64,000 nucleotides of DNA from an uncultured Verrucomicrobia subdivision 3 bacterium (GTDB taxonomy: Bacteria; Verrucomicrobiota; Verrucomicrobiia; Limisphaerales; UBA11358): positions 33,063-97,062 of the forward strand of contig CAIOIC010000080.1 in assembly GCA_903858275.1 (NCBI GenBank). Reading direction: 5' to 3'. The notes under the pieces were generated by a model. That model was not told the origin of the DNA. It did not search any database and saw only the letters and a program-made list of their open reading frames with translations. The position numbers were made by a program, and so were the translations under genes. Shown here piece after piece: positions 1,349-59,287 of this stretch; position 1 is the first letter of the stretch; every line of letters begins with the position of its first letter.

Positions 1349-1399
1349 TCCATTATAGCCTTGGCGGACGATGAGCCGGAAGTTGATTTGCGGATTAAC

Positions 1400-2227: not shown

Positions 2228-2405
2228 GATGTTTAATTATGTCTGGGCAACTATAACCGTCAACGTCAGACGGTGATGGCGGATATGTTTTTGGTGAAGC
2301 CAGTCATTCTTTGTCCGGAGCCGGGGCGGTATCTTTGGCAATGAACAACCACGACAATTCTCTATGTTTGAAGCACCATGTTGGCTGGGCTGTGGAAACT
2401 CAATT

Positions 2406-4556: not shown

Positions 4557-4569
4557 TAACAAAAAAGCC

Positions 4570-6387: not shown

Positions 6388-6420
6388 TTTTGACTTGCAG
6401 GCGTTTCTGAAAGCTGAACC

Positions 6421-8565: not shown

Positions 8566-8571
8566 TACGAA

Positions 8572-9834
8572 ATGAATTCCCTTGCCCAGATGAATTCAAA
8601 CAATCCCGATACCAACATGATTAACCGAAGGGGTTTTATCAAAACCTCATCCGTCGTCACCGCCGGCTCACTGCTCGGTGGCAGTCTCGCTTCGCTGGCT
8701 GCTGCGCCAGCGGTCGTAGGCGTGACGCTCTCCGGTCATCGGTTGAAGCGGCCGCTGGCGATTGCGATGTGGGACTTCTCCTGGCTGGAGCGCCGCTGGC
8801 CGGGCGCTGGCTATGAGGATTGGGACCAGGCGTTGGATGAACTCAAGGAGCGCGGCTACGACGCCGTGCGTATTGACGCCTATCCGCATCTGATCGCCGC
8901 TGGTGCCGAGCGCGAATGGGAATTGCTCCCCTGCTGGAACCAGCACGTCTGGGGCAGCCCGGCGCTTTGTCGCGTTCGGGTGCAACCGGCCTTGAACGAG
9001 TTTATCGCCAAGTGCGGAAAGCGCGGCATCCTTGTTGGTCTTTCAACTTGGTTTCGCGAGGACGCCGCGGAAAATCTCTGCACGAAGATCGCCTCGCCGG
9101 AAGAATTGGGGCGCATTTGGAAAGTGACGCTTGATTCGATCAGCCCGGAGTTGCGCCGGCACATCCTGTATGTGGATTTCTGCAACGAGTTTCCTTCGCA
9201 CATCTCGACGCCATTCTTACCCAAGGATTTCAAACGCCATTCGCCAGAGGGGGAACGCTGGATGCGCGATTCGATTGCCGTGGCGCGCCGGGAGTATCTC
9301 CAGTTCAGTTACACCTTTTCCATTGACCGCGAATTTGATTCATTGCGCGAACAGAATACCTCCTTCCTCGATTTTCTGGAGCCGCATGTATGGATGACAA
9401 ACTTCTCCGATTTCTATCAGCAAGTTGGCTACAAGTGGGAAACCTTCGACCCGGTCGGCTACGAGAGAATTGTCGCCAAGGCCGAGACGCTCTATCGCTC
9501 CAAGCCGGCCTATTGGCAATCACGGCTGGAATATGGAATCCACCTTCTCGCCGATTGGTCGCGCGCCAGCGGCAAGCCGCTGATCACTACCGAATGCTGG
9601 GGCGTTGTGGTTTTCAAAGACTGGCCGCTGCTGAATTGGGACTGGGTGAAAGACCTGACCGAACACGGCGTCCGCACAGCCTCTGCGACGGGTTGCTGGG
9701 CGGCGCTGGCCACGAGCAATTTCTGCGGTCCGCAGTTCAAAGGCATGTGGCGCGACATCGCCTGGCACCGGCGGCTTACCGATGTGATTCACCACGGCAA
9801 GCTGCCGAATTATCCCCTCCAATTGAAAAGTTGA
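8572..9834 (+). CDS. Putative glycoside hydrolase, cellulase-like TIM-barrel family, Tat signal
   Basis: Tat-like MINRRGFIKTSSVV. WDFSWLERRWPGAGYEDW, RIDAYPHL and DFCNEFP resemble the sugar-binding cellulase-like family as I remember it. The family assignment is tentative. Confidence 0.45.
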   Translation: MNSLAQMNSNNPDTNMINRRGFIKTSSVVTAGSLLGGSLASLAAAPAVVGVTLSGHRLKRPLAIAMWDFSWLERRWPGAGYEDWDQALDELKERGYDAVRIDAYPHLIAAGAEREWELLPCWNQHVWGSPALCRVRVQPALNEFIAKCGKRGILVGLSTWFREDAAENLCTKIASPEELGRIWKVTLDSISPELRRHILYVDFCNEFPSHISTPFLPKDFKRHSPEGERWMRDSIAVARREYLQFSYTFSIDREFDSLREQNTSFLDFLEPHVWMTNFSDFYQQVGYKWETFDPVGYERIVAKAETLYRSKPAYWQSRLEYGIHLLADWSRASGKPLITTECWGVVVFKDWPLLNWDWVKDLTEHGVRTASATGCWAALATSNFCGPQFKGMWRDIAWHRRLTDVIHHGKLPNYPLQLKS

Positions 9835-9836
9835 AT

Positions 9837-16920: not shown

Positions 16921-17742
16921 ATGAAACTTGGCATCATCAATAGCGCGTTCGGTCAGGCGGGTGTGGATACCACCACCGGCCTCAAACACATCGCCCGCAT
17001 CGGTTTCGATTGCGTGGATATTTTCACCGAGGCGATGACGATTTCCAAAAAAGAGAAGCTGCTCATCGCGAGCACTTGCGACCGGGCGCGGCTGCCCATC
17101 ATTTCTTTGCCGGTGGTCGCCACCGGCTTGATTGATTTCAATGACCCCGTCCGCGCCTTTCACGTCGCGCGCTGCAAGAAGTTTGTTGACCTCGCCGCCG
17201 AGTTTGGCGCGAAGAACATTCTGCTCGTGCTGGGCGAATATCTCTGGCAGCGCGAAGTCATTCCACCGGCCGCCCAATGGCAATGGGCTGTGGAAACCTG
17301 CCGCGAAATCGGCGATTATGCCGGAAAAAAGAACGTGGACATCGCGCTGGAACTGGAACCGTTCCGCTTGAGCTTGCTCCACAATGTGGACGAAATGGTT
17401 CGCTTCGTGAATGACTGCAAACATCCGCGGGTGCGCGCCAACATTGATGTCAGCCATCTGGTTCTGGCCGATACCAGCCCGCTGGATCTGGCAAAGCTCA
17501 AAGGCAAGGCGATCCACGTTCACCTCAGCGACTGCGATGGGAAAGTTCACGGCGATCTTCCGCCCGGACGCGGGATTGTGAAGTTCGAGCCGTATCTGCA
17601 AGCGATCAAGGAATTGAAAATCAACGGCGTGGTTTCCATCGAGCTGGAGTATTCGCCCGATCCGAAGCGGATTGTCGAATGGGTGACGGAAGCCTACACC
17701 CAGACGGACAAGCTGATGAAACTGGCCGGCTTGCGTGGATAA
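16921..17742 (+). CDS. Sugar phosphate isomerase/epimerase (xylose-isomerase-like TIM barrel)
   Basis: Motifs IALELEP, NIDVSHL, HVHLSD, GDLPPGRG and SIELEY are typical of the family. Confidence 0.8.
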   Translation: MKLGIINSAFGQAGVDTTTGLKHIARIGFDCVDIFTEAMTISKKEKLLIASTCDRARLPIISLPVVATGLIDFNDPVRAFHVARCKKFVDLAAEFGAKNILLVLGEYLWQREVIPPAAQWQWAVETCREIGDYAGKKNVDIALELEPFRLSLLHNVDEMVRFVNDCKHPRVRANIDVSHLVLADTSPLDLAKLKGKAIHVHLSDCDGKVHGDLPPGRGIVKFEPYLQAIKELKINGVVSIELEYSPDPKRIVEWVTEAYTQTDKLMKLAGLRG

Positions 17743-17743
17743 A

Positions 17744-18511
17744 ATGGCTGCCGATTCCACACCTGCAAGCGGTGCGATGAAGCCGCCGCGCATTGCGATG
17801 CTGGCCTGCCGGGTGTTTGAAAAGGAGATCGCGCTGCTTGCGGCAGGAGCCAGCCATATTATGGAAACCCGCTTCTTCGAGGTCGGCTTGCATGACCGGT
17901 CCGATCACCTCCGTGAGAAGTTGCAATCCGAACTTCAAGTGGTTGAAGCTCGCGATGACATTGACGCCGTGGTGCTGGCCTACGGGCTGTGCGGTCTCGG
18001 CACAGCGGGCTTGCGCCCCTTGCGCCACAAGTTGGTCATCCCGCGTGCGCACGATTGCATCACTGTCTTCATGGGCAGCAAGGAAGCCTATGCCGCGCAT
18101 CAACGCCGCTGCCCGACCTGTATTTACTATTCGCCGGGCTGGAATCGTGAGCGTCGGGTTCCCGGTCCGGAAAGACTGGCGGCGCTCCAGTCCGAACTGG
18201 CCAAAAAATATGCGCCGGATGACGTGGAAATGCTGATCGAGACGGAGCGGGAGCTATGGGCGATGCATGACACCGTTACCTATCTTGACCTGGGCACGGA
18301 CGATGCCGAGTCGGAGGCGGATTACGCCCGTCGCTGCGCGGACTGGCTGGGTTGGAAATTCGAGCGGCTGGCGGGCGATCCCAAGCTGCTGCGGGATTTG
18401 CTCTGGGGCAATTGGGATTCAGAACGCTTTCAAATCATTGAGCCGGGCGACGAACTCGCGCACTCCGCCGATGAAAAAATTCTGTGCGCCAAGCCGGCGG
18501 TGAAAAAATGA
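17744..18511 (+). CDS. DUF1638 domain protein (family associated with corrinoid methyltransferase clusters)
   Basis: RIAMLACRVFEKE, LAYGLCGLG and IPRAHDCI match my recollection of DUF1638. The ATG at 17744 lies 1 nt after the upstream stop; the ORF-track GTG at 17735 overlaps it. Confidence 0.65.
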   Translation: MAADSTPASGAMKPPRIAMLACRVFEKEIALLAAGASHIMETRFFEVGLHDRSDHLREKLQSELQVVEARDDIDAVVLAYGLCGLGTAGLRPLRHKLVIPRAHDCITVFMGSKEAYAAHQRRCPTCIYYSPGWNRERRVPGPERLAALQSELAKKYAPDDVEMLIETERELWAMHDTVTYLDLGTDDAESEADYARRCADWLGWKFERLAGDPKLLRDLLWGNWDSERFQIIEPGDELAHSADEKILCAKPAVKK

Positions 18512-20148
18512 GTCGCCCGCCGCATCTTCAAATCGAACTCGAATCCGGCGAGCGCCGGGACATTCCCGCGCCGTCCGGCGGCCGTTCGCTGGCCGACGCG
18601 CTGGCGGCGCAAGGCCTGCCGCTGAACACGCGTTGCGGCCAGCGCGGGCTTTGTCGCGGCTGCGAAGTGGAATTGCGCAGCGGCGAACTTACGGTCAACG
18701 GCGCCATTGTCACCGCGCCCGCCACAGTTCAAGCCTGCCGGGCAATCGTCAGTGCGGCGGCCAAGATTTTCATTCCCGCCCGTTCGCGCATTGAGCACAA
18801 GCCGCAGGTCGGCGAGACGTTTGAAATTGCGATTCCCTACGCGCATCAGCCGTTGTTTGCGCCGGTGGCAGGCGGGCGCGACACGGCGTTTGCCGTGGAT
18901 GTCGGCACGACCACCGTGGTGGTGCTGCTGGTGGATTTGGTCAGCGGCGAAGTGTTGTCGCGTGCCGGGGCGTTCAACGAGCAAATCCGCTTTGGCGACA
19001 ACGTCATCACCCGCATCGAAGCCGCGCGCTTGCCGGAAAATCTCGCCGCGATGCAGCGGGCCATCGTGATGGAGACGATCAAGCCGTTGCTGGTGAACGC
19101 GTGCGAGCGGGCAGGGCGGTCATTAGATCGCATTGCCGGTGGCGCGATCGCCGGCAATACCACCATGTTGCATCTGCTCGTCGGCGAAGATCCGACCCCG
19201 CTGGGCATCGCACCGTTCACCCCGCGCTTTATCGAAGGGAAAAGTCTTACCGCCGGACAAATTGCTTTGTCTGCCGACGGTCTTGCGCCGGAGACGCCCG
19301 TGCAATTGCTGCCGGGCATTGGTGCCTACATCGGCGCGGACATCACCGCCGGAGTGTATGCGAGCGGCATGGTGTTTGATCCGACGCCGAGTCTGCTGGT
19401 GGATATCGGCACGAATGGCGAAATCGTTTTGCAGAACGGCGGCCAACTTACCGCCTGCGCCACCGCCGCCGGTCCGGCGTTTGAAGGCTGCGGTTTGCGC
19501 TGCGGCACGCGGGCGCGCGAAGGCGCGGTCAGCGATCTGGATTTGAAGCTGAATCCGTTCTCGCTCGTGACCGAAGTCATCGGCAATGTGCCGCTGGCGC
19601 GGGCGAACGGCATTTGCGGTTCGGCGTATGTGGATTTTCTGGCCACGGCGCGGAGCAGCGGACTGCTGGGATTTTCCGGCCGGTTTGTTAAAACCGTTTG
19701 GGAAAATCTGCCGGCGCAAAATCGCTTCACGGCGGAGGATGAACAGGCATTGCGTCTCGTGGCGGATGGCGGCAGCGGTGAATTGCGCATCAGCGAGGTG
19801 GATGTCGCCCTGCTGCTGCAGGCCAAGGCGGCGATTGGGGCGGGCATCGAAACTTTGCTGGAGACCGCGGGCATCAAGGCGGCGGATTTGGGCCGCGTTT
19901 ATCTCGCCGGTGGATTTGGGATGCACTTGAATGTGCCGCACGCCATCGCCATCGGCTTGCTGCCGGGTTTTCGCGAGGAACAGGTGCGGGTGGTTGGTAA
20001 CACTGCGCTGGCGGGCGCGCTGCTGGCGCTGGTGGACCGGACGACGCTCGCGGAAATGGAGAATTTGCGACGCCAGGTGGAGGTCGTCGAACTGAATCTG
20101 GCCGACGGGTTTGAAGACCGTTACGTCGAGCACCTGATGTTGCCATGA
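18508..20148 (+). CDS. RACo-type ATP-dependent reductive activase of corrinoid proteins ([2Fe-2S] ferredoxin domain + ASKHA/DUF4445 domain)
   Basis: The N-terminal cysteine cluster is RCGQRGLCRGCEV...C. The ASKHA phosphate motifs are AVDVGTTTVV and LVDIGTNGEIV. The ATG at 18508 overlaps the DUF1638 stop (ATGA). Confidence 0.8.
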   Translation: MSRPPHLQIELESGERRDIPAPSGGRSLADALAAQGLPLNTRCGQRGLCRGCEVELRSGELTVNGAIVTAPATVQACRAIVSAAAKIFIPARSRIEHKPQVGETFEIAIPYAHQPLFAPVAGGRDTAFAVDVGTTTVVVLLVDLVSGEVLSRAGAFNEQIRFGDNVITRIEAARLPENLAAMQRAIVMETIKPLLVNACERAGRSLDRIAGGAIAGNTTMLHLLVGEDPTPLGIAPFTPRFIEGKSLTAGQIALSADGLAPETPVQLLPGIGAYIGADITAGVYASGMVFDPTPSLLVDIGTNGEIVLQNGGQLTACATAAGPAFEGCGLRCGTRAREGAVSDLDLKLNPFSLVTEVIGNVPLARANGICGSAYVDFLATARSSGLLGFSGRFVKTVWENLPAQNRFTAEDEQALRLVADGGSGELRISEVDVALLLQAKAAIGAGIETLLETAGIKAADLGRVYLAGGFGMHLNVPHAIAIGLLPGFREEQVRVVGNTALAGALLALVDRTTLAEMENLRRQVEVVELNLADGFEDRYVEHLMLP

Positions 20149-20980: not shown

Positions 20981-22219
20981 TCAGGAAAACTCCTTAATGG
21001 CTTCGAACATGGCCACGATGTTTTGTGGCGGCACGTCGGGTAGAATGTTGTGGACGGTGTTGAATACGAAGCCGCCGCCGGGCATGAGGATTTCCAGCCG
21101 GCGCTTCACGTCGTCCTTCACCTGTTGCGGTGTGCCGGTGGGCAGCACCACTTTCGTGTCGCCGCCGCCGCCCCAAAAGCAGATGTCCTTGCCGAAATCG
21201 CGCTTCAAGCCGTCCGCCTCCATGCCGAGGCAGGTCGTCTGCACGGGATTGATGACATCGTAACCGGCTTCGATCAAATCCGGCAGCAGCGCGCGGATCG
21301 AGCCGCAGGAATGAAGAAACGTTTTCATTTTGGAATGCTTGTGGACGTAGTCGCACAGCATCGTATGGCGCGGCTTGAAGAGCTGGCGATACATGGTTGG
21401 CGACATAAACGGTCCGCCATTCGTGCCAAGGTCGTCGCCGAAGCGGACGATGTCCGCCACGTCGCCGACGGCGCGGCAGACTTTTTCGAGCGTGGCGAGG
21501 TGGCGTTCCATCAGCGCGTCGAGGAGGCGCTCGACCTGTTCCGGTTCGGCGGCGAGGTCCATGAGGAAGTTATCCATGCGCCGGAGAAACGTGCCCCACT
21601 CAAACAGATTGCAGCCGACGACAATCATCAATGCGCGGTCGCTGGTGTGGCGGAGTTCGAGCGCCTTGGCGCGGAGCGCGTCCCAGAAGCCGGGATCGCT
21701 GGCATGATCCCATGGGCTATGGACGAGCGCAGCCCAGAGGACGCGGCTCATCTCTTTATCCAGGTCGCGGTAGTCGGCGGGATAATTGTCGAGGTAGGGA
21801 AAATAGGTCTGGTCATAGAACGTGCCGCGCGCGGGCATGTGCGCGATGTCGAGGCCGTCCTTCATCCGCGCGACGAACGAACCGTCGGTTTGGCGCTCGG
21901 GGTTGAACCACGCGGGATACAACGCAGGCTGGCCGTCCATCAACGTCGTGGGCTGCCACGCCGCCGGCTCGGTATTGAAAGCGCGGCCGATGTCCACCAC
22001 GTCCACGCCGAAGCGGTCGAGGATGATGTTTTCGGGTTGCGCGAGCTGCTGGACGACGTCATAGACGAGCGTGTTGCCCTGCGCGAGGCCGAGATGGCGC
22101 TTGAGATTGCCGTAGGCGATGGCTGAGATGCCGGAGCTGGGCGTCGCGCCGAGGTCCACGGGCACGCGGTCGGGCTGGCGGTGTTCGATGGCAGCAAGGA
22201 TGCGTTCGCGTGAGTTCAT
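20981..22219 (-). CDS. URO-D family methyltransferase, long class (putative substrate:corrinoid methyltransferase)
   Basis: 412 aa. The N-terminus MNSRERILAAIEHRQPDRVPVD is typical of the URO-D/MtaA family. It also has LHSCG and the C-terminal block FWGGGGDT...PGGGFVFNTVHNI. It is a clear paralogue of 35332..36603. Confidence 0.75.
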   Translation of the reverse strand: MNSRERILAAIEHRQPDRVPVDLGATPSSGISAIAYGNLKRHLGLAQGNTLVYDVVQQLAQPENIILDRFGVDVVDIGRAFNTEPAAWQPTTLMDGQPALYPAWFNPERQTDGSFVARMKDGLDIAHMPARGTFYDQTYFPYLDNYPADYRDLDKEMSRVLWAALVHSPWDHASDPGFWDALRAKALELRHTSDRALMIVVGCNLFEWGTFLRRMDNFLMDLAAEPEQVERLLDALMERHLATLEKVCRAVGDVADIVRFGDDLGTNGGPFMSPTMYRQLFKPRHTMLCDYVHKHSKMKTFLHSCGSIRALLPDLIEAGYDVINPVQTTCLGMEADGLKRDFGKDICFWGGGGDTKVVLPTGTPQQVKDDVKRRLEILMPGGGFVFNTVHNILPDVPPQNIVAMFEAIKEFS

Positions 22220-23229
22220 TATTTGTGTTCCTCCTGGAGTTTCGCGCCTTCACCTTCCGGCAAGCCGTCGCGGAACGTGCCAAACCATTTGTCGAGCGGA
22301 ATGCCGGCTTCGCCGTAGTTGCACTCGAAGTAGCGGTGATGAAGGTAATGAAAGTAGGAGCCGGTCGGCCATTTGTCCTCGATGATCGGCCCTTCAAATC
22401 CATGGTGGCCGCATGCGGGCGAGAGTGCCGTGTGCTGGAGGTTGAACAAGAAATGGATTGGATGCGACGGCACAATCCAATGAATCAGCACGACGCTGAA
22501 ATACAGCAATGTTTCAACTGGATGCATCGCCATGCCGGACCAGGAAATGGGATTGATGTTCTTGTGATGGAGATAATGGAAGCGCTGGTAGAGCGGTTTC
22601 CAGTGGATGAGCCGGTGAATCCAGTAGAAATGAAATTCGCGCCAGAACGGAATCAGGAACAGCCACACGACGAACCACACCGGATGCGCGCTCCAACTGA
22701 CGGAGGGCAGCTTGCCGTTGGCGTAAAGCCACATCGTGACGGCTTCGTAGGTGGTCATAAAGGCGCAGCCGATGACGGCGGTCCAAAAGATGTTGTCATA
22801 GACCTGGTCGCGGAAGAGGAAGGTCCGGCTATTGCGCGCCGGCCAGCGGGAATCGTATTTGCCCTTCGTGCCTTCGCCTTTGAGGAGGTAGAAATACAGG
22901 TGATAGCTGCCATAGACCAACCAGATCAAAACCTGGTTGCGGAGGAAAAGCTGGGAGATCCAGTCCCACTGAAACTGCGCGCACCGCGCCAGCTCCGGCT
23001 GAAACCACAGCCACGACGCGGCGGAAATCGCGAGCAGCACGAGATTGCGCGGCCACATGAAGCCGGGCCAAGTGATGAGCCACTTCAGAAATGCCAGCGG
23101 CCGGGGTGGCCAGACGAACAACGGCGCGTAGCGGCACGGATAATCCGGACGCCACTCGCCCTTGGCATTGCGCACGCCGGGGTCGGAATGCGGTGTGCCG
23201 GGAATGAAATGTTGGAAGATTTTTCGCAT
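22219..23229 (-). CDS. Fatty acid hydroxylase / sterol desaturase superfamily membrane di-iron oxygenase
   Basis: His boxes HRLIH, HYLHHKN and HYLHHRYF, plus several hydrophobic segments. The stop overlaps the downstream URO-D start by 1 nt (TAATG at 22217-22221). Confidence 0.8.
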   Translation of the reverse strand: MRKIFQHFIPGTPHSDPGVRNAKGEWRPDYPCRYAPLFVWPPRPLAFLKWLITWPGFMWPRNLVLLAISAASWLWFQPELARCAQFQWDWISQLFLRNQVLIWLVYGSYHLYFYLLKGEGTKGKYDSRWPARNSRTFLFRDQVYDNIFWTAVIGCAFMTTYEAVTMWLYANGKLPSVSWSAHPVWFVVWLFLIPFWREFHFYWIHRLIHWKPLYQRFHYLHHKNINPISWSGMAMHPVETLLYFSVVLIHWIVPSHPIHFLFNLQHTALSPACGHHGFEGPIIEDKWPTGSYFHYLHHRYFECNYGEAGIPLDKWFGTFRDGLPEGEGAKLQEEHK

Positions 23230-23268
23230 GCCGGTTCGTTAAATGAAACACGCCGAAGTTCCGCAGGA

Positions 23269-23685
23269 CTATTGCAGGTGGAAAACTTCTTTCATATCGC
23301 TCCATATTTTGCTTTTCGCGGCAGCGGCAGGCAGCGGCGATTGACAGGGATCGGTTTCCTTCCACCAGGCTTGCGTAGCAGGATCAGCGGCCATCTGCTT
23401 CATGTCGGCTTCAAAATTGGTGCCAGTATATTCCAGATAGGCAAACAGGTAGAGCTTGCCGTCAATTTCACATTTGTTGATGGAGAAATTCTGGATGTGG
23501 ATTTCCTTGAGCGTCCGTTTAACTGACTGCCAGGGATACGCGTGTAATTCCTCGTAGCGCGCAGCTTTCTCCGGCTTGAGGCCGGTGACCCAGGCGTAGC
23601 GGGTGACGTGCGGTTGCGGAGTGGCGCAGCCAGACAAAACGACCAACGCCAACAATGGCAATGCATAGTTCAGTTTATTTTTCAT
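23269..23685 (-). CDS. L-rhamnose mutarotase (RhaM/DUF718)-like protein with lipoprotein signal peptide
   Basis: The block YAWVTGLKPEKAARYEELHAYPWQSV...IQNFSI...LFAYLEYTG...ATQAWW is RhaM-like. From the ATG at 23685 the N-terminus is MKNKLNYALPLLALVVLSGC, which contains a lipobox. Confidence 0.65.
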   Translation of the reverse strand: MKNKLNYALPLLALVVLSGCATPQPHVTRYAWVTGLKPEKAARYEELHAYPWQSVKRTLKEIHIQNFSINKCEIDGKLYLFAYLEYTGTNFEADMKQMAADPATQAWWKETDPCQSPLPAAAAKSKIWSDMKEVFHLQ

Positions 23686-23699
23686 GGGCTCAATCTGGT

Positions 23700-25565
23700 T
23701 CAACGGAAAATGTAATACAGCACGCACATGGCGATGAAGACCAGCGCGGCCAGCACCTTGTAATTCGCCAGCCCTGGCCAGCCGGGCGATTTCAGCGCGT
23801 CAAGCGGATGCGGCCAATACAGCTTCTGCGGATCTTCCGCCGCCAGTTTTGGACGCGCGATGGTCAAGGCGACTTGCAGCACGATGCAGAAGCAGAGCAG
23901 GTAAAACGCCATCAGCATGAATGGCGTCACATAGAAGAAGGACGGAATCCAGCCGAAGGCCACTGGCTGCCAGACGTGCAGCGTCTTGAGCGTGAATACC
24001 AGCGCGCCGGTCAGCGAGCCGATCCACATGGTCCATTTGGCGCTGAACGCCGAGGCGCGCGGCCAGAAAACCCCCACGGCGAACACGCACGAAATCGGCG
24101 GGGCGATGTGCGCGATGATGTCGTTGATGCCCGCGAAAATGCTTTTGTAATTGTCCAGCAGCGGCACCATGGCAATACCCAGCAGGAACGCCGCAAGCGA
24201 GGCAAGCCGGCCGATTAACACCAGCTTTTTCTCCGGCGTCGCGGGCCGGAAGCGCCGCCACAGATCGTAGCTGAACAGCGTGGCGATGGAGTTGGACGCG
24301 CTGGCGAGGTTGCCCATGAGCGCGGCCATCAATGCCGCCGCCATTACCCCGAATAACCCGACGGGCATGAGGTTTTTAATCATCAGGCCGTAGGTTTCCT
24401 TGGATGACATCACGGTGACGTTCGCGGGCAGCACGAGATTTTTCTGATCAAAGCCAGACATCAAAGTCAACGGCTGACCGCCGTTGGCGAGTTCTTTCGT
24501 CAAGTCCAGCGGAGCCTGGCCGTCGGTGAAATTGATTTTCTGCGTCTGGCCGCCGAGCGCCTTGCCGGTGAGTTCCAGTTGGTATTGCTTGCCGGACGCG
24601 GAGATGGTCTGCTCGCTACGAATGCGGAGTTGCGCCATCCCGTCCAGTTTGCCGCCCTGAATTATCGTCAGGAACAGCAGTCCCGGCAGGATGAAAACGA
24701 ACACCGGAAACACCTTGATGAGGCCGCAGAACAGCGGGCCGGTGCGGGCGTGGTTCTCGTCTTTCGCGCCCAGGACGCGCTGCACAATCGTCTGGTCCGC
24801 ACACCAATACCAGATGCTCAACGCCGGATAGCCCAGCAGCACCGCATACCACGGCAGGCCGGGTTCCTCGGCAGACGAGCGCAGCATGGTGAGTTTCACC
24901 GTCTCGCCGCTGGCTTGAAGCTGCTCCGTCATGCCGTGCCAGCCGCCGGCTTTCGTGTAGGCCAGCGCGGTGATGATGATCGAGCCCACCAGCAAGATGA
25001 CGGCCTGAATTGTCTCCGTCAGCACGACCGCCGAGAGTCCGCCGAGAATGGTGTAGATCGCCGTGAGCGTCGTGAGCGTGATGATGCAAACCCATTTATC
25101 AATGCCGAATACGCCATGCAGCACCAGCCAGCCGGTCGAGAGCGGAAACGCGATGTTAAAGATGATCGCCGTGAGCATCGAGAGTCCCGCCAGCCAGTCG
25201 CGACATTCGGAGCAATAGCGTTTCTCCAGAAAGTCCGGCAACGTCGCCACCTTGGCGCGCATATAAAACGGCACAAAAAACAGGCTCAACACAATCAGCG
25301 TGTAGGCCGCCAGCCACTCAAAGTTCCCCATGAGAAATCCGGAGTCATAACCGGCTTGCGCGAGGCTGACAAGGTGCAGGCAGGAGATGTTCGTCGCGAA
25401 CAGCGCCAGCCCGATGGACGACCAGCTCAACGTGTTGCCCGCGAGAAAATAGCTACCCGCCTCGCTGCCCTTGCGTTTGCGCAGGTCAATCCACACGCCC
25501 GCGCCGACAATGCCAGCAAGGTAAACAACAATGATGATGAGGTCTATGGCGCTGATGTTCTTCAT
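23700..25565 (-). CDS. Sodium:solute symporter (SSS/SGLT family)
   Basis: 621 aa and multi-TM. The N-terminal pattern (IDLIIIVVYLAGIVGAGVW...FLAGNTLSW) is typical of SSS transporters. It contains a hydrophilic insertion of about 80 aa. Confidence 0.85.
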   Translation of the reverse strand: MKNISAIDLIIIVVYLAGIVGAGVWIDLRKRKGSEAGSYFLAGNTLSWSSIGLALFATNISCLHLVSLAQAGYDSGFLMGNFEWLAAYTLIVLSLFFVPFYMRAKVATLPDFLEKRYCSECRDWLAGLSMLTAIIFNIAFPLSTGWLVLHGVFGIDKWVCIITLTTLTAIYTILGGLSAVVLTETIQAVILLVGSIIITALAYTKAGGWHGMTEQLQASGETVKLTMLRSSAEEPGLPWYAVLLGYPALSIWYWCADQTIVQRVLGAKDENHARTGPLFCGLIKVFPVFVFILPGLLFLTIIQGGKLDGMAQLRIRSEQTISASGKQYQLELTGKALGGQTQKINFTDGQAPLDLTKELANGGQPLTLMSGFDQKNLVLPANVTVMSSKETYGLMIKNLMPVGLFGVMAAALMAALMGNLASASNSIATLFSYDLWRRFRPATPEKKLVLIGRLASLAAFLLGIAMVPLLDNYKSIFAGINDIIAHIAPPISCVFAVGVFWPRASAFSAKWTMWIGSLTGALVFTLKTLHVWQPVAFGWIPSFFYVTPFMLMAFYLLCFCIVLQVALTIARPKLAAEDPQKLYWPHPLDALKSPGWPGLANYKVLAALVFIAMCVLYYIFR

Positions 25566-29265: not shown

Positions 29266-30279
29266 ATGCCAGCGTCCGTCGCACCCATTTATAAAACCCA
29301 GAAATCACGGTTTGAGGTTGACTCCTGCGCGCCGCAGTCGGCCGCCGTGCGCGGCGGCAAGATTCAAATGCACGCGCTTTCAAAGGGCCATTATCCCGGT
29401 GTTTTATTGCAGCCCGACCAGTTGCCCGGCATCGCCAGCATCGGTTATTGGAATGGCGCTAGCGCCCAGGACTGGGGGCTGGAGGCCCATCGCAATGAAG
29501 GCATTGAAATTACTTTCCTCGAAACCGGCGCGATGGCTTTCGCCGTCGAAGCGAAGAAATTTGAACTTCGCTCCGGTCATTTCACCATCACGCGTCCCTG
29601 GCAGTTGCACCGGCTTGGCGCCCCCAACATCGGACCGGGAAGGCTGCACTGGCTCATTTTGGATGTGGGGGTGCGTCGACCAAATCAAAACTGGTGCTGG
29701 CCGGACTGGGTGACGCTGACCAATCATGATCGGATGGAACTGACTCACAAGCTGCGGCACAACGAAAATCCAGTCTGGAATTCCTCGCCGGAAATCTGCG
29801 CCGCTTTTCGCGGCCTGTCCGACGGAGTGGGCAGATGGCCGCAGCCGCACATGGAATCGCGAATGCTGGTATTGTTGAACCAGCTTTTGCTGGGCATCCT
29901 GACGGCACTCACCGCCCAGCAGCAACACCAGAATCCGGAACTGACCTCCCGGCGGCGCACCGTGGAACTTTTCCTACGCGATCTTTCAGAAAACGCCGCC
30001 AGTACCCGCGAGCCTTGGACGCTGGACAAAATGGCTGGTCATTGCGGCATGGGCATCACGGCCTTCTCAAAATATTGCCGCGAACTGGTGAACAATGGCC
30101 CGGTTGAATATCTGAATCAATGCCGCCTAAACCGGGCCGCCAGCCAGCTGAAGAAAAACACGGTTCAGTCCGTGACCGAAATTGCGTTCCAAAACGGCTT
30201 CAACTCCAGCCAGTATTTTGCCACTGTCTTTGCCAAACGCTTTGGGGTCACTCCGACGGGTTATCGTTCAAAATGCTAA
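29266..30279 (+). CDS. AraC family transcriptional regulator (cupin-like N-domain)
   Basis: C-terminal HTH pair (ITAFSKYCRELVN ... VTEIAFQNGFNSSQYFATVF). It is divergent from the fucosidase operon. Its 3' end overlaps the convergent methyltransferase gene by 4 nt. Confidence 0.85.
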   Translation: MPASVAPIYKTQKSRFEVDSCAPQSAAVRGGKIQMHALSKGHYPGVLLQPDQLPGIASIGYWNGASAQDWGLEAHRNEGIEITFLETGAMAFAVEAKKFELRSGHFTITRPWQLHRLGAPNIGPGRLHWLILDVGVRRPNQNWCWPDWVTLTNHDRMELTHKLRHNENPVWNSSPEICAAFRGLSDGVGRWPQPHMESRMLVLLNQLLLGILTALTAQQQHQNPELTSRRRTVELFLRDLSENAASTREPWTLDKMAGHCGMGITAFSKYCRELVNNGPVEYLNQCRLNRAASQLKKNTVQSVTEIAFQNGFNSSQYFATVFAKRFGVTPTGYRSKC

Positions 30280-31184
30280 ACCGGCGCTTTGATGTTTTTG
30301 ACCGCACGGCTCATGGCGGTGAGCAGGGCGGGCGTGGTGCCGCAGCAACCGCCGATGATGCGCACGCCAGCGGCGAGCAGGCGCGTGGCCGTGGCGGCCA
30401 TTTCTTCCGGTGTGGCTTTGTAGATCGTTTTGCCATTTTCCATGTGCGGTGAACCGGCGTTGGGCTGCACGATCACCGGCGTCTTGCCGGCGGCGGCAAC
30501 GAGTTGTCCGGCCAGTTTTACATAATCGTCCAGGCTCAAGTCCGTGCCGCAATTGGTGCCGACAATGTCGGCCCCGGCGGCGATGGCGCGGCGCATGGCG
30601 TCGGCGGCGTTGGTGCCCATCATCGTGCGGAATTCGTCGCCAGTTTTCTGAAAGGAGTAGGTGACGATGACTGGGATTTTGGGGTTGCAAGCCTTGGCCG
30701 CTTCCACCCCCACGATGGCCTCGGCGGGGTCGCTCATGGTTTCCACGAGGATGGCATCCGCGCCGCCTTCAAGTAGCGCGGCAATTTGCATCTGAAACGC
30801 CTCGCGCAATTCATCCGCCGTGACATCGCCAACGGGCTCGAGAAAATCGCCGAATGGTCCGACGTCACCGAGCACCCATCCGTGGTCACCGGCGGCGGCT
30901 CTCGCCACGCGGGCGGCGGCTCGGTTTAGTTCCGCCACCCGAGCTTCCAAGCCATGCAGTGTGAGCGCAAACCGTGTGCCGCCAAAAGAATTGGTGGTGA
31001 TGAGGTCGCAGCCGGCGTTGCGGTAGGCGAGGTGAATGCCGCCGACATCGCCGGGGCGGTCGAGGTTCCAGGTCATGCCGCATGCGCCGCTGACGAGGCC
31101 ACGGGCCATGAGTTGCGTGCCCATGGCGCCGTCGCAGACGAGCGGACGCTTGACGAGTTCTTCGAGCAGTGGGGTTTTGTTCAT
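30276..31184 (-). CDS. Stand-alone homocysteine S-methyltransferase domain protein (MetH Hcy-binding-domain-like)
   Basis: 302 aa. LVCDGAMGTQL, GTNCGT and the C-terminal IIGGCCGTTP match the zinc-thiolate Hcy-binding domain of MetH/BHMT-type enzymes. Confidence 0.8.
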   Translation of the reverse strand: MNKTPLLEELVKRPLVCDGAMGTQLMARGLVSGACGMTWNLDRPGDVGGIHLAYRNAGCDLITTNSFGGTRFALTLHGLEARVAELNRAAARVARAAAGDHGWVLGDVGPFGDFLEPVGDVTADELREAFQMQIAALLEGGADAILVETMSDPAEAIVGVEAAKACNPKIPVIVTYSFQKTGDEFRTMMGTNAADAMRRAIAAGADIVGTNCGTDLSLDDYVKLAGQLVAAAGKTPVIVQPNAGSPHMENGKTIYKATPEEMAATATRLLAAGVRIIGGCCGTTPALLTAMSRAVKNIKAPV

Positions 31185-31196
31185 GAGTTTTGTGGT

Positions 31197-32033
31197 TTAG
31201 TCGAAAATCACGGTGCGATTCCCGCAGAGGAAAACGCGGTCTTCAAACACCATTCGCAGCGCGCGGGCGAGCACCATTTGCTCCACATCGTGTCCGGCCT
31301 GCGAAAGATCCTGCGCGGTGTGCGTGTGATCCACCGGGATGACTTGCTGGACGATGATGGGGCCTTCATCCAGTTTCTCGGTGACGTAATGCGCGGTGGC
31401 GCCGATGACTTTGACGCCGCGATCAAACGCCTGTTGATAGGGCTTCGCGCCGATGAACGCCGGCAAAAAGGAGTGGTGAATGTTGATGATGCGCGCCGGA
31501 AAACGGCGGACAAATTCCGGCGTGAGCACGCGCATGTATTTCGCCAGCACGATATAATCCGGCTGAAGCGATTCGATGGTTTTTAGCAATTGCGCTTCAT
31601 GTGCCTCGCGGGTGAGGGATTCGTGGTTGATGAAATGAAACGGCAGGTCAAACCGGGTGACGAGCGTTTTCAGCACGGTGTGATTGCTGATAACGCCGAG
31701 CATTTGCGCGTTCAGTTCGCTGAAGGCATGGCGGATGAGGATGTCGCCCAGGCAATGATGCTCCTTGGAGGCAAGCACCACGATGCGTTTCGGTTTCAGA
31801 TTGGAAAGGCGGATGTTGGCGGTGGCGGGCAGGACCGCGCGAAGCTCGGCTTCGAGTTGTCCGGCCTTCACGGCGCCGTCAAATTCCGTGCGCATGAAAA
31901 AGCGCGCCGGGCCGCGATCCACAAATTCCTGGTTGCCGACGACGTTGACGCCGTGTTTGAGCAGCACGCCGGTGATGGTGTGAACGAGGCCGCGGCGGTC
32001 CTCGCATTCCACGAGCAGGACTTGGGTGCTCAT
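31197..32033 (-). CDS. purU: Formyltetrahydrofolate deformylase
   Basis: 278 aa. An N-terminal ACT-like domain (LLVECEDRRGLVHTITGVL) is followed by a formyltransferase domain (YIVLAKYMRVL, IINIHHSFLPAF.GA.PY.QA). Confidence 0.85.
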   Translation of the reverse strand: MSTQVLLVECEDRRGLVHTITGVLLKHGVNVVGNQEFVDRGPARFFMRTEFDGAVKAGQLEAELRAVLPATANIRLSNLKPKRIVVLASKEHHCLGDILIRHAFSELNAQMLGVISNHTVLKTLVTRFDLPFHFINHESLTREAHEAQLLKTIESLQPDYIVLAKYMRVLTPEFVRRFPARIINIHHSFLPAFIGAKPYQQAFDRGVKVIGATAHYVTEKLDEGPIIVQQVIPVDHTHTAQDLSQAGHDVEQMVLARALRMVFEDRVFLCGNRTVIFD

Positions 32034-32186
32034 TGAGCTCCTCCGGAATTATTTTGGTTGAGGGAAATATTGTGGCGCATGTCTTTGAAGTTTCTACTCC
32101 TTGCCGCGTTGGGAAGCAATACCGTATGCGCCGAAAGCACCAAAGCACCAAAGAATCATCCCAGAATACAAGACCCTTCCGGTCTG

Positions 32187-32843
32187 ATGCGTTATGTTCA
32201 TGGCGCTATGAATATCGACCATCCCCTGACTCAAGCCATCATTGCCGGCCGCCGCAAAGACGTGCCGCAACTCGTGCAGCAATGCCTCGATGCCGGCGAA
32301 ACCGCCGGATCCATTGTGGAAAACCGTCTCGTGCCCGGCATGGCCGTCGTCGGCGAGAAGTTCAAGCGCAATGAAATATTCGTTCCGGAAATGCTCATTG
32401 CCGCCCGCGCCATGAAAGAGGCGTTGAAAATTCTGGAACCCAAGCTCGTGGCCGCCGGCATCAAGCCGGAGCATAACGCCGTGATCGGCACCGTCGAGGG
32501 CGATTTGCACGACATCGGCAAAAACCTGGTCGCCATGATGTGGAAGGGCGCCAACATCGAAGTGATTGACCTTGGGGTGAATGTTCCGGTGGCGAAATTT
32601 GTGGAAGCCGTCCGCCAGCACAAGCCCAAGCTGGTCGGCCTGTCGGCATTGCTCACCACGACGATGCCCGCCATGCGCGATACCGTCAAAGCCATCCGCG
32701 AAGCGGGGCTGCCGGTGAAAATTGTCGTCGGCGGCGCGCCGATCACGCTGGAATATGCCCGGGAAATCGGTGCGGATGGTTATTCACCGGACGCCGGCAG
32801 CGCGGTGGATGCCGCCATGGCGCTGGTGCAGTGCAAGGCTTGA
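32187..32843 (+). CDS. Corrinoid (cobalamin-binding) protein, MtaC/MtbC-like
   Basis: B12-binding motifs DLHDIGKN (DxHxxG), GLSALL (SxL) and VVGGAPIT (GG), preceded by a helical cap domain. The start is ambiguous: ATG at 32187 or 32208 gives the usual length of about 210 aa, while the ORF track begins at TTG 32058. Confidence 0.85.
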   Translation: MRYVHGAMNIDHPLTQAIIAGRRKDVPQLVQQCLDAGETAGSIVENRLVPGMAVVGEKFKRNEIFVPEMLIAARAMKEALKILEPKLVAAGIKPEHNAVIGTVEGDLHDIGKNLVAMMWKGANIEVIDLGVNVPVAKFVEAVRQHKPKLVGLSALLTTTMPAMRDTVKAIREAGLPVKIVVGGAPITLEYAREIGADGYSPDAGSAVDAAMALVQCKA

Positions 32844-32861: not shown

Positions 32862-33893
32862 ATGGATCGCCAATTTTACCTCGACCTGGCCGCATCCGGG
32901 TTAAGCATGCCCATCGGCACGCATCTGGTGCTGCACGAACATTCGGACCATGCGGCTATTGTGCAGGATGGCCAGCGTCTGGGTCGGGTGGTGGAAGAAT
33001 CAGCCCGTCGTTTCCGGATGCCCATGGCGTTCCCGCTCATGGATCTGAAGCTGGAAAAAGAAGCGCTCTTGCTCGCGCGCGGCGTTCCGGCGGCGGCGGT
33101 GGACAGCTACCATTTTTCTGAAATTCCAGAGAATGATGGCGAGTTCCGGCTTACAAAAAACATGGAAGCGGTGTGCGAGGCGATTCGTTATATCGCCAAC
33201 GAAACGGATTTGATTCCGGTCGGCATGGGCATCGGGCCGTTCTCGCTGATGACCAAACTGATTTCCGACCCCATCGCGCCGGTGTTCATGGCCGGAACGG
33301 GAGCCACCGGCGGAGACGAACCTGAAGTGGCCTTGGTGGAACGGCTGCTGGAACTAGGCTTTGCGACGATTAAAAACTATCTCGACGCCCAGATCGAGGC
33401 GGGTGCCAAAGCCATCATTCTGTGCGAACCGGCGGCCAATAAAGTGTATTTCTCGCCCAACCAACTCGCCGAGAATTACGATATTTTCGACCGCTATGTG
33501 ATGCGATTCAACCTGGCCATTCGCGAACAACTTCGTTTTCGCGGGGTGGATCTGATCTTTCACGATTGCGGTGAATTGCTCGATGGGATGGTGCACCGGT
33601 TTGCCACGCTGGATCCCGCCATGATCAGTTTGGGCAGTTCCCGGTTGCTCTGGGAGGATGCCAGGCTGCTGCCCAAGTCCACGGTGCTTTATGGAAACCT
33701 GCCGACGAAACAATTTTACTCCGATACCTTGGTGAGCGTCGAAAAGGTGCGGCAGCTTTCCGCCGACCTCACCCGCCGGATGCGCGCGGTCGGACATCCA
33801 TTCATCTTGGGCAGCGAATGCGACATCTTAAGCGTTCCCGGCAGCGAACAGACCATCAAAGCCAAGGTGGAAGCATTTTTGCAAACCAACTGA
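32862..33893 (+). CDS. MtaA/CmuA-type methyltransferase (URO-D fold, short class)
   Basis: 343 aa, with QIEAGAKAIILCEPAA, FHDCG and LGSECD (H-x-C...C pattern). It sits between the corrinoid protein gene and the mtaB-like gene. Confidence 0.7.
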   Translation: MDRQFYLDLAASGLSMPIGTHLVLHEHSDHAAIVQDGQRLGRVVEESARRFRMPMAFPLMDLKLEKEALLLARGVPAAAVDSYHFSEIPENDGEFRLTKNMEAVCEAIRYIANETDLIPVGMGIGPFSLMTKLISDPIAPVFMAGTGATGGDEPEVALVERLLELGFATIKNYLDAQIEAGAKAIILCEPAANKVYFSPNQLAENYDIFDRYVMRFNLAIREQLRFRGVDLIFHDCGELLDGMVHRFATLDPAMISLGSSRLLWEDARLLPKSTVLYGNLPTKQFYSDTLVSVEKVRQLSADLTRRMRAVGHPFILGSECDILSVPGSEQTIKAKVEAFLQTN

Positions 33894-33902
33894 CCGAATA
33901 TT

Positions 33903-35285
33903 ATGATGCACTATAAATCTCTCGCCATTTCCGACCCGTTGGAACTAACGTTCGGCCTCGCGCCCAAACCCGTGACTACAAAAAGTGGCATGGTGATTGG
34001 CGGTGGCACGGTCTATCCCGAACTGAATTTCACGCTGCCGCCAATGACGATTGACGCCGGCACAATGCCGGAGGTGCGGCGTAACTATGAGCAGATCATC
34101 GAAGGTGCGCTTCGCCGCGCGGCGGATCTGGAAGCGCCCGGTGTGGTCATCGAGTTTGAGACGCTGCCGCCGATGACCGAGCATCCGCAGTGGGGTTTGG
34201 ACATCGCGAAGATTTTGCTGGAAGGAATGCAGCGTGAGAAAGATCGCAGCGGCCTGAAAAGCGTGCTGCGCATGACGCCCAACGACAATCGCGAGTTCGA
34301 GCGTCCGCCGCTGATGCGGCGGGGTCGTTACTGGGAGGCGATGCTGGAATTGTTTGAAGGTTCCGCGGCGGCAGGTGCGGAGTTGTTGAGCATTGAATCC
34401 GTCGGCGGCAAGGAATTGCACGACGAGGCGCTGGTCAACGGCGACTTGCCCGCGAGCATTTTTTCGCTCTGCATCCTGGGCGAACGTGATATGCGTTTTC
34501 TGTGGACGCATCTCCAGAAGATTGCCGACCGGCATGGCGTGAAATGCGCCGGCGACACCGCCTGCGGCTTCGGCAACACCGCGATGGTTCTGGCGGAACA
34601 GAAAATGATTCCACGCGTGTTTGCCGCCGTGGTGCGTGCGGTCACTGCGGTGCGATCGCTCGTTGCTTATGAGTGCGGCGCAGTCGGGCCGGGCAAGGAT
34701 TGCGGCTACGAGAACCCCATTCTCAAGGCCATCACCGGTTTTCCGATGGCGATGGAAGGCAAGACTTCGGCTTGCGCGCACTTGAGCCCGATGGGCAATC
34801 TTGCCGCCGCTTGCTGCGATACCTGGTCCAACGAATCTGTCCAAAACATCAAGCTGCTCGGCGGCATGGCCCCGACGTGTTACATGGAGCAGCTCGCCTA
34901 TGACTGTCGTCTGATGAATACGGCTCGCAGTCACGGCAAGGCTTCCGCTCAACAGCTTCAGCGCTGGCTGGTTGAGTCCGACGTGGCGACCGATCCTCAG
35001 GCGTTTATTATTTCGCCCGAATCTTCCGTCGCACTGGCAAAAACCATTGTGGCTTGCGATTCACATTATCACGCTGGCGTGGCGGCGGCGCGCAAAGCGG
35101 TGGAACTGCTGCGTAATGCACATGACCAGGGGAAAGTGCGAATTGCGCCCAACGAAGTCATCTGGTTCGACACCTTGCAAGACGCGCTGGATGAATTGCC
35201 GGAAAGTGAATCGGAATTCATCGGTCAGCAACTCGCGTTGGCGGACCGTTCCAAGTTTTTACCGGCGGAATACGGTTTGGAATGA
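33903..35285 (+). CDS. mtaB: MtaB-like methanol:corrinoid methyltransferase homologue
   Basis: 460 aa, the same length class as Methanosarcina MtaB. Long runs align from memory with M. barkeri MtaB: SLVAYECGAVGPGKDCGYENPILKAITGFPMAMEGKTSACAH and CCDTWSNESV. The segments carrying the Glu/Cys/Cys zinc ligands are present (SIESVGGKE, GDTACGFGN, GKDCGYEN). Confidence 0.8.
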   Translation: MMHYKSLAISDPLELTFGLAPKPVTTKSGMVIGGGTVYPELNFTLPPMTIDAGTMPEVRRNYEQIIEGALRRAADLEAPGVVIEFETLPPMTEHPQWGLDIAKILLEGMQREKDRSGLKSVLRMTPNDNREFERPPLMRRGRYWEAMLELFEGSAAAGAELLSIESVGGKELHDEALVNGDLPASIFSLCILGERDMRFLWTHLQKIADRHGVKCAGDTACGFGNTAMVLAEQKMIPRVFAAVVRAVTAVRSLVAYECGAVGPGKDCGYENPILKAITGFPMAMEGKTSACAHLSPMGNLAAACCDTWSNESVQNIKLLGGMAPTCYMEQLAYDCRLMNTARSHGKASAQQLQRWLVESDVATDPQAFIISPESSVALAKTIVACDSHYHAGVAAARKAVELLRNAHDQGKVRIAPNEVIWFDTLQDALDELPESESEFIGQQLALADRSKFLPAEYGLE

Positions 35286-36666: not shown

Positions 36667-36742
36667 TGGTGGGCCTGCTCGGACTTGAACCGAGAACCAA
36701 AGGATTATGAGTCCTCTGCTCTAACCATTGAGCTACAGGCCC
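36667..36742 (-). tRNA. tRNA with CAU anticodon (elongator Met or lysidine-dependent Ile2), CCA encoded
   Basis: The reverse complement is GGGCCTGTAGCTCAATGGTTAGAGCAGAGGACTCATAATCCTTTGGTTCTCGGTTCAAGTCCGAGCAGGCCCACCA. It folds as a 76-nt cloverleaf (7-bp acceptor, GCTC/GAGC D stem, GAGGA/TCCTT anticodon stem, loop CTCATAA, CTCGG/CCGAG T stem). The body resembles E. coli ileX as I recall it. Confidence 0.9.
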
Positions 36743-54850: not shown

Positions 54851-54853
54851 TTT

Positions 54854-57736: not shown

Positions 57737-57795
57737 GACGCAATAACTGTTGAATTATGTCGAGCAGAAATCTGCCGATTGAAGAAAAATGAATT

Positions 57796-59244: not shown

Positions 59245-59287
59245 AACGCGCTTTGTGGGCGCGAGAAGGAAACCGAGCGAAGACAGT

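Follow-up and report, generated by a model that had tools for sequence, protein, structure and literature searches.

To what acceptor does a corrinoid methyltransferase cassette pass its methyl groups when no pterin-binding methyltransferase is encoded beside it? The question is raised by a 64,000-nucleotide (nt) stretch of DNA from an uncultured Verrucomicrobia subdivision 3 bacterium (contig CAIOIC010000080.1, positions 33,063 to 97,062; hereafter the window). Here the gene for a 302-amino-acid (aa) stand-alone homocysteine (Hcy) S-methyltransferase domain protein (the Hcy protein) and purU, the gene for formyltetrahydrofolate deformylase, diverge from a cassette that encodes a corrinoid protein, the methanol methyltransferase MtaB and two methyltransferases of the URO-D superfamily. 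On balance we favour, with modest confidence, a reading of these sequences in which the Hcy protein would be the acceptor-side half (methyltransferase 2, MT2) of a modular B12 system that is fed by methanol and methyl ethers and yields methionine.

The Hcy protein contains a single Pfam domain, PF02574 (S-methyl_trans; residues 15–295, E = 6.4e-67), which covers the model from end to end (positions 1–283 of 283), and it carries the motifs DGAMGT, GTNCG and GGCCGTTP; a preliminary description of the window had likewise seen an Hcy domain and nothing else. Its top matches in the Protein Data Bank (PDB) were the Hcy domains of MetH from Thermus and Thermotoga (8ssc, 2.9e-45; 1q7m, 8e-44). An alignment of 104 family members showed that the zinc-cysteine triad and the segments DGxxGT, TN(S/T)F, ET, NC, PNAG and GGCCGT are invariant; the same holds for the MetH sequences of E. 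coli and T. maritima and for three homologues from Planctomycetota. By comparison with the structures of MetH and BHMT, the three cysteines of NC and GGCCG are expected to bind zinc and the DGxxGT and ET motifs to bind Hcy, the Glu of ET and the DGxxGT loop holding its amino and carboxyl groups. Among the family models, the Hcy protein scored highest with the YitJ type (262 bits), followed by the Bmt/MtgE type (235), MetH (155) and MmuM (114), and it is 39.6% identical to Bmt/MtgE of S. meliloti.

Stand-alone homologues of about 300 aa number in the thousands. The best 120 are 74–100% identical to the Hcy protein, have PF02574 as their only domain and are assigned by GTDB to Verrucomicrobia subdivision 3/Limisphaerales from lakes, the closest being 95% identical; after clustering at 50%, just three representative clusters were closer than 50% full-length identity. 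Relatives at 40–49% identity are mainly stand-alone, and some are fused to other domains (P0199, P0145, P0192 and P0194): to Pterin_bind several times and to DUF1638 once (P0199). As a gene fusion, P0199 is a Rosetta-stone link of the Hcy module to the putatively reactivation-associated DUF1638 protein. An internally deleted second Hcy-methyltransferase remnant, with residues 1–54 joined to 207–300, was seen in L021 (10001–10442, on a contig shared with L009) and is apparently a pseudogene.

On the other side of the divergent intergenic region, the cassette reads corrinoid protein, URO-D (343 aa), MtaB and URO-D (423 aa) on the plus strand. The corrinoid open reading frame (ORF) opens at 32058; its likely start is the ATG at 32208, giving 211 aa where homologues have 209–211 aa, and an alternative ATG lies at 32187. 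Depending on the start, the gap measures 153–174 nt, with a GC content of 48% compared with 58–64% in the flanking genes, in agreement with the AT-richer gap of about 150 nt described previously. A promoter consensus scan of this gap found no convincing sigma-70 consensus, and a search of the whole window at Rfam gathering thresholds found no S-adenosylmethionine (SAM) or cobalamin riboswitch, its sole match being a tRNA. The nearest NCBIfam models of the corrinoid protein are of the MtgC and pyl_corrinoid types, and the protein is 43% identical to the S. meliloti cobalamin-binding protein that adjoins MtgB. MtaB matches M. barkeri MtaB (2i2x) over its full length (1.6e-93) and retains the ESxGGKE, GDTxC and GPGKDCGYEN segments, which we take to be the zinc-ligand segments of 2i2x. 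The 343-aa URO-D protein has an H-D-C motif plus Cys320, and its orthologue follows the corrinoid gene in L001, L004, L008, L012, L023, L024 and others. Neither cassette URO-D protein had a PDB match.

Is the Hcy gene tied to this cassette, or is it a chance neighbour? Fourteen distinct Hcy-anchored contexts extend far enough upstream to be scored, and in 13 of them the Hcy gene, alone or together with purU, is divergent from a corrinoid gene. The outer flanks of these contexts are wholly different, and the substrate:corrinoid methyltransferase (methyltransferase 1, MT1) behind the corrinoid gene varies: the 343-aa URO-D protein, MtaB, both, or the 343-aa and 423-aa URO-D proteins together. 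L014 is the only exception; in positions 1–4785 it has purU and the Hcy gene without a preceding corrinoid gene, and a 734-aa ORF lies upstream instead. The genes for the 242-aa AraC regulator, RACo and DUF1638 are frequently found directly downstream of the Hcy gene in relatives. A functional tie between the Hcy protein and the corrinoid cassette is thus supported by the comparison, because adjacency is kept despite differing flanks and MT1 genes, and because the list of parts equals that of a genetically proven three-part MetH (PMC5764234).

As a control for ascertainment, we anchored the comparison on MtaB, using 80 metagenomic loci (76–99% identity) from bog, fen, peat and lake hypolimnion samples. 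Nineteen of these had at least 8 kb on both sides, and linkage was scored within 10 kb. The corrinoid protein was present in 18 of the 19, any URO-D protein in 11 and the Hcy gene in 7, while 6 had neither the Hcy gene nor URO-D. Dependence is therefore one-sided: the Hcy gene nearly always stands by a corrinoid gene, whereas corrinoid cassettes often lack a linked Hcy gene. Two of the 19 loci (L031 and L082) have the Hcy gene without any URO-D gene within 10 kb, in the minimal order DUF1638, RACo, AraC, Hcy protein, PurU / corrinoid protein, MtaB, which leaves the Hcy protein as the sole MT2 candidate there.

A pterin-binding module would offer the methyl group another destination. Pfam searches of all large ORFs found no PF00809 or MtrH domain in the window, as the preliminary description had reported after reading the frames for an MeTr/MtrH-type domain, and when the pterin domain of E. 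coli MetH was compared with the window by six-frame tblastn, the best match had an E value of 0.1 over 24 aa. In the same search the Hcy and B12 domains of E. coli MetH reached their targets (2.7e-25 and 3.8e-29). Nor did phmmer, queried with the MetH pterin domains of E. coli and Peptoclostridium, return a pterin-binding match, even at E = 10, in 1.39 Mb comprising the window and the fetched, mostly related, loci; as a positive control, tblastn with the E. coli domain recovered the pterin domain of P. acidaminophilum (Peptoclostridium) MetH at 1e-24. PF00809, MTHFR and FolD were also absent from the Pfam annotations of about ten contexts and from a Pfam census of 54 unassigned ORFs of 200–480 aa beside MtaB in loci without the Hcy gene.

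We next consider PurU, which lies directly upstream of the Hcy gene on the minus strand, as described earlier, with 12 nt between its stop codon and the Hcy ATG. It is a bona fide deformylase (TIGR00655, 367.8 bits against a cutoff of 285.95; PDB PurU match, 2e-67). The purU–Hcy tandem recurs in L008, L010, L012–L015, L024, L031, L032, L037, L041, L050 and L082, and purU directly precedes the Hcy gene in about half of the Hcy-anchored contexts. In the comparison with MtaB-anchored loci, purU was confined to those holding the Hcy gene (7/7, six of them as the tandem; Fisher p = 0.036 and 0.004, with kinship of the loci ignored); PurU thus goes with the Hcy gene and not with the MtaB–corrinoid protein pair. 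No MetF or FolD was found beside PurU in the annotated Hcy contexts or in the census of the 54 neighbour ORFs. E. coli PurU is reported (Nagy et al. 1995) to be activated by methionine and inhibited by glycine, and is said to balance the pools of tetrahydrofolate (THF) and one-carbon (C1)-THF by bleeding the surplus to formate. By analogy, this suggests that PurU is a folate overflow valve, a role we propose because PurU is seen only where the Hcy gene is. Such a valve would be needed because methionine made without methyl-THF no longer draws on the folate C1 pool. The part of PurU, which the preliminary description had left unexplained, can thus be given a candidate explanation. Separately, a 'formyl transferase' adjoining DUF1638 in S. 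meliloti proved not to be a PurU and is not counted as support.

The direction of methyl flow that we infer would be as follows. MtaB would use methanol to methylate the adjacent corrinoid protein in its Co(I) state, and the variable URO-D enzymes would load the same protein, their donors probably being sugar methyl ethers that fucosidases and other glycosidases encoded nearby set free. On the Hcy protein, a zinc-activated homocysteine thiolate would then take the methyl group from methyl-Co(III), giving methionine without methyl-THF. RACo and the DUF1638 protein would bring oxidised Co(II) back to Co(I), AraC-type regulators would induce the gene set without involvement of methionine, SAM or B12 riboswitches, and PurU, predicted to be co-transcribed with the Hcy gene, would hydrolyze surplus 10-formyl-THF to formate and free THF.

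Several observations weigh against this proposal. The Hcy gene is near just 37% of the MtaB–corrinoid loci (7/19) and, with 6/19 having neither it nor URO-D, corrinoid cassettes evidently need no linked Hcy gene; methanol could arrive from pectin at a rate far above the demand for methionine, which speaks for a further sink; elsewhere in the genome there may be genes for MetH, MetE or an unlinked pterin-binding MT2; the MtaA-like H-x-C...C motif is present in all four URO-D paralogues of the window, one of which could be an MT2; and the Hcy protein stays under the NCBIfam cutoffs of all curated Hcy-methyltransferase equivalogs, including NF005718 of the Bmt/MtgE type (234.7 bits against 338), NF007020 for MmuM/YagD (113.7 against 215) and full-length MetH, TIGR02082 (155 against 1010.85), of which the Hcy domain alone is present. 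The first two of these fit an arrangement like the MtgBCDE hub, the main alternative, though in our view rather unlikely: the Hcy protein would be a housekeeping subunit for Hcy in a three-part MetH, and most methyl groups from the substrates would pass through an unlinked, bidirectional pterin module to THF and then via MetF, FolD and PurU to formate. The gene for the pterin subunit lies at a distance from the corrinoid and Hcy genes in both Phaeobacter and Ruegeria, so that its absence from one window says little; the Ruegeria module, MtgD, is bidirectional, and THF-linked C1 oxidation ends with PurU in these systems. PurU is also terminal in the THF-linked C1 oxidation of the cmu chloromethane pathway, and the presence of MtaB implies a methyl flux above methionine demand. 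Yet across more than 100 loci PF00809 never appears as a linked gene, whereas RACo, DUF1638, AraC and PurU frequently do; neither MetF nor FolD is ever encoded alongside; PurU tracks the Hcy gene instead of the MtaB–corrinoid pair; and alphaproteobacterial clusters link MtgD and not MtgE, the reverse of what is seen here. The earlier suggestion of a split, substrate-fed methionine synthase accordingly keeps the support of the corrinoid tie, the part list and the Ruegeria precedent, whereas the lack of a pterin module in the window adds little to it.

A different acceptor is also conceivable. The preliminary description had raised transfer to another thiol through the MtaA-type zinc enzymes, as MtaA transfers to coenzyme M, with the Hcy protein as a side branch. 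The order corrinoid protein–URO-D–MtaB does mimic mtaC–mtaA–mtaB, all four paralogues have H-x-C plus a distal Cys, and type 1 mlp clusters with several URO-D genes and no H4folate methylase are known (PMC10418091). We consider this improbable, since the number and type of URO-D genes vary by locus, as expected of substrate-specific MT1s, and they are missing from some complete loci with MtaB, corrinoid protein and Hcy protein. Scores of the paralogues with the MtaA_Meth model are 18–119 bits against a cutoff of 400, the two cassette copies having very low MtaA/MtbA similarity (18–44 bits); the window showed no genes for coenzyme M or another thiol cofactor, and we found no positive evidence for the proposal. 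Still less probable is that the Hcy protein works without a corrinoid, on S-methylmethionine, SAM or betaine, next to corrinoid genes by coincidence. Stand-alone PF02574 proteins of about 300 aa do include MmuM and BHMT, and the protein passes no curated cutoff; against this stand PDB scores of 158 bits for MetH Hcy domains compared with 67 for MmuM (5dml) and about 50 for BHMT, an MmuM model score well short of the 235–262 bits for the Bmt/MtgE and YitJ types, and the adjacency in 13/14 contexts, which we judge no coincidence. Equally remote is a shift of the acceptor to sulfide or a small thiol, the methyl group being dumped as methanethiol or dimethyl sulfide as a sink in anoxic lake or peat. 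O-demethylation coupled to sulfide methylation is known physiologically from the freshwater anaerobes Holophaga and Sporobacterium, and related sequences come from bog, fen and hypolimnion metagenomes. However, the ET glutamate and the DGxxGT loop are invariant, and the nearest fused relatives are methionine-synthase halves. The methionine-forming reading also has a stronger form, which we hold only tentatively and would sooner doubt: if the genome had no pterin partner at all, the Hcy enzyme would be the only acceptor for the MtaB and URO-D cassettes, and a fully folate-independent B12 methionine synthase, supplied by methanol and sugar methyl ethers and with PurU as a coupled valve, would extend over glycan degraders exposed to oxygen in at least three phyla (Verrucomicrobiota, Gemmatimonadota and Clostridia).

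Table 1. Features of the window, by position, with the evidence for each.
Feature	Position	Strand	Remarks
MtaA/CmuA-family methyltransferase, 332 aa	14778..15776	+	PF01208 1.2e-56; beside P450
DUF1638 protein, corrinoid reactivation-associated	17735..18511	+	PF07796 6.3e-36
RACo/RamA-type reductive activator of corrinoid proteins	18484..20148	+	Fer2 + RACo middle + ASKHA
AraC-family regulator, 242 aa	20145..20873	+	travels with RACo/DUF1638
Conserved block: URO-D (412 aa), FA_hydroxylase-like, rhamnose mutarotase, Na+/solute symporter	20981..25565	-	
AraC-family regulator (cupin + HTH)	29266..30279	+	convergent with Hcy gene, 4-nt end overlap
Stand-alone MetH-type Hcy S-methyltransferase domain protein, 302 aa; proposed methylcorrinoid:homocysteine MT2	30276..31184	-	PF02574
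PurU, formyltetrahydrofolate deformylase	31197..32033	-	ACT + Formyl_trans_N; upstream of Hcy gene, co-oriented
Divergent intergenic region purU/corrinoid gene; presumed bidirectional promoter	32034..32207	.	48% GC
Corrinoid (B12-binding) methyl-carrier protein, about 211 aa	32208..32843	+	B12-binding_2 + B12-binding, DLHDIG
Divergent methyltransferase of the URO-D/MtaA superfamily, 343 aa; candidate substrate:corrinoid MT1	32862..33893	+	PF01208 1.2e-14
MtaB-type methanol:corrinoid methyltransferase (MT1)	33903..35285	+	PF12176 3.5e-163
Second divergent URO-D-superfamily methyltransferase, 423 aa	35332..36603	+	PF01208 1.2e-11; TIGR01463 44 bits; H-T-C

The window as a whole is a glycan-utilisation region of a Verrucomicrobium, with GH2, GH10, GH120, GH115, two GH29 fucosidases, sugar transporters, UxuA and UxaC. 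The end of the cassette is marked by a tRNA gene (36670–36742, minus strand, 75.6 bits) between the last URO-D gene and rpoD. On the other side, the AraC gene convergent with the Hcy gene has an orthologue at the same position in L008, and further ones in L013 and L024. Between 13613 and 20873 the order is P450 (383 aa), MtaA/CmuA-like URO-D (332 aa), GFO/IDH/MocA, TIM-barrel, DUF1638, RACo and AraC; the 332-aa methyltransferase scored 156.7 bits with TIGR01463 and 54.6 bits with hemE. The position of the P450 gene directly upstream of this MtaA/CmuA-family gene places candidates for oxygen-dependent and corrinoid-dependent demethylation side by side in one sugar locus. The block at 20981–25565 recurs beside the Hcy gene in L007, L008, the P0009 contigs and L024, and it is also present in L056; it probably serves to take up a methylated deoxy-sugar and demethylate it. 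Ether-cleaving monooxygenases are among the members of the FA_hydroxylase family, and the 412-aa URO-D protein and the FA_hydroxylase-like di-iron protein may form an aerobic/anaerobic pair acting on one such sugar. Genes at 53879–62709 (UxuA-like, RraA-like aldolase, MFS, SDR, GH39/42-like, GH115 alpha-glucuronidase, UxaC), together with GH10/GH120 at 4570–12158, point to the use of xylan and 4-O-methyl-glucuronate, the latter a candidate natural methyl-ether donor for the URO-D enzymes.

Relatives of the locus show further variation. A DUF6580 protein (about 194–240 aa), which is not present in the window, directly follows MtaB in 5 of the 54 sampled neighbour ORFs (L033, L024 and three others). 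A 359-aa protein without Pfam domains follows corrinoid and URO-D genes or MtaB in L001 (7059–8138, minus strand), L034 and L099; faintly similar to URO-D-like ORFs only, it may represent another methyltransferase family. On plasmid 1 of Gemmatirosa kalamazoonensis, a cultured aerobic Gemmatimonadota strain, URO-D, the corrinoid protein, RACo, a 403-aa ORF and the Hcy protein are encoded in one direction (L111, 4728–10915), downstream of a UxuA-like gene; the 403-aa ORF has no Pfam domain and weakly resembles a Peptoclostridium MetH activation-domain protein (E = 3e-6 in a small search). In the human-gut Clostridium Vescimonas fastidiosa (L028, 5569–9212), a 579-aa URO-D–B12 fusion of CmuA-like architecture, accompanied by DUF2284, is divergent from a 405-aa Hcy methyltransferase, which looks like a two-protein version of the same corrinoid/Hcy logic. 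Planctomycetota homologues (39–44% identity) do not lie beside corrinoid genes, and the association could not be extended to these homologues. One of them, a 39%-identical homologue from Anaerohalosphaeraceae (L018, 4250–10567), is flanked on either side by URO-D homologues, with a sulfatase in the vicinity and no corrinoid gene within the contig.

If methionine formation on the Hcy protein is correct, methyl groups from plant and algal polymers, as methanol from pectin and methyl ethers of fucose, rhamnose and glucuronate, would pass directly into the methionine/SAM pool of Verrucomicrobia that are abundant in peat and lakes. This would add a B12 dependency to these bacteria, set up a methanol sink in competition with methylotrophic methanogens and provide an oxygen-independent route to unlock methylated sugars. 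The modular methionine-synthase principle of MtgBCDE would be extended from marine alphaproteobacterial N-methyl to O-methyl donors and to other phyla, and puzzling corrinoid cassettes without an H4folate methylase would find an answer.

Finally, we compared the locus with known systems. The three-part split MetH of Phaeobacter inhibens was shown genetically (Price 2018, PMC5764234); its parts are a PF02574 protein, a corrinoid protein encoded next to it and, unlinked to these, a pterin-binding protein (PGA1_c13370, c13350 and c16040), together with the RamA-like PGA1_c15200 and the DUF1638 protein PGA1_c13340, which is co-fit with the split MetH. Both systems have a stand-alone PF02574 protein and a separate corrinoid protein (B12 cap plus B12 domain) from adjacent genes, a Fer2 plus RACo/DUF4445 activator and a DUF1638 protein. 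The Hcy protein is only about 40% identical to the alphaproteobacterial subunit type, taking S. meliloti Bmt as its representative. Unlike Phaeobacter, the window and its related loci yielded no pterin-binding subunit, and the locus itself includes MtaB, URO-D methyltransferases, PurU and AraC regulators.

That a catabolic MT1 can feed the corrinoid protein of a split methionine synthase is established for MtgBCDE of Ruegeria pomeroyi (Mausz 2025, PMC12478193): MtgB transfers methyl groups from glycine betaine to the corrinoid protein MtgC, the pterin module MtgD can run either way, and methionine is formed by MtgE (the rhizobial 'Bmt'), a stand-alone Hcy module. As we read the locus, in both cases one corrinoid protein serves a catabolic MT1 and a stand-alone Hcy module in oxygen-exposed heterotrophs. 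The donors differ, being glycine betaine through an MttB-family MT1 there and O-methyl compounds through MtaB and URO-D types here. The linked acceptor differs as well: alphaproteobacterial catabolic clusters mostly link the pterin-binding MtgD and leave MtgE unlinked (PMC12478193), and the reverse holds here. Type 1 mlp clusters, for which methyl-S/Se substrates were proposed (Kountz and Balskus 2023, PMC10418091), share several URO-D/MtaA-like genes, a corrinoid protein and a RACE-type activator without an H4folate methylase in the cluster; their hosts are obligate anaerobes (mostly Firmicutes), and the clusters contain neither MtaB nor a PF02574 protein. Core-MetE enzymes of the MesA-D groups (Price 2021, PMC7857596) likewise make methionine from a methyl-corrinoid protein and not from methyl-THF, using an unrelated fold, the MetE C-terminal domain, where the present system has a PF02574 barrel.

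With Methanosarcina MtaABC (2i2x) the locus shares a full-length MtaB, an MtaC-like corrinoid partner and URO-D-family neighbours; it differs in having no coenzyme M context, a MetH-type Hcy domain as the likely acceptor and a glycan-degrading bacterial host. The cmu chloromethane pathway of Methylobacterium and bacterial O-demethylases also have purU close to a corrinoid methyltransferase cassette, together with a RACE-type activator, features shared by our locus. They possess a pterin-binding MT2 (CmuB or MT II), and cmu additionally metF and folD, whereas in the window and related loci only purU is linked. Our literature searches found no description of MtaB or URO-D cassettes joined to an Hcy module, and nothing on this system in Verrucomicrobia or on corrinoid-dependent demethylation of methylated sugars. 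Collectively, the modular methionine synthase is already known; what is new relative to this precedent is the proposed O-methyl donors, the linked Hcy module, the linked PurU and the hosts, which belong to Verrucomicrobiota, Gemmatimonadota and Clostridia.

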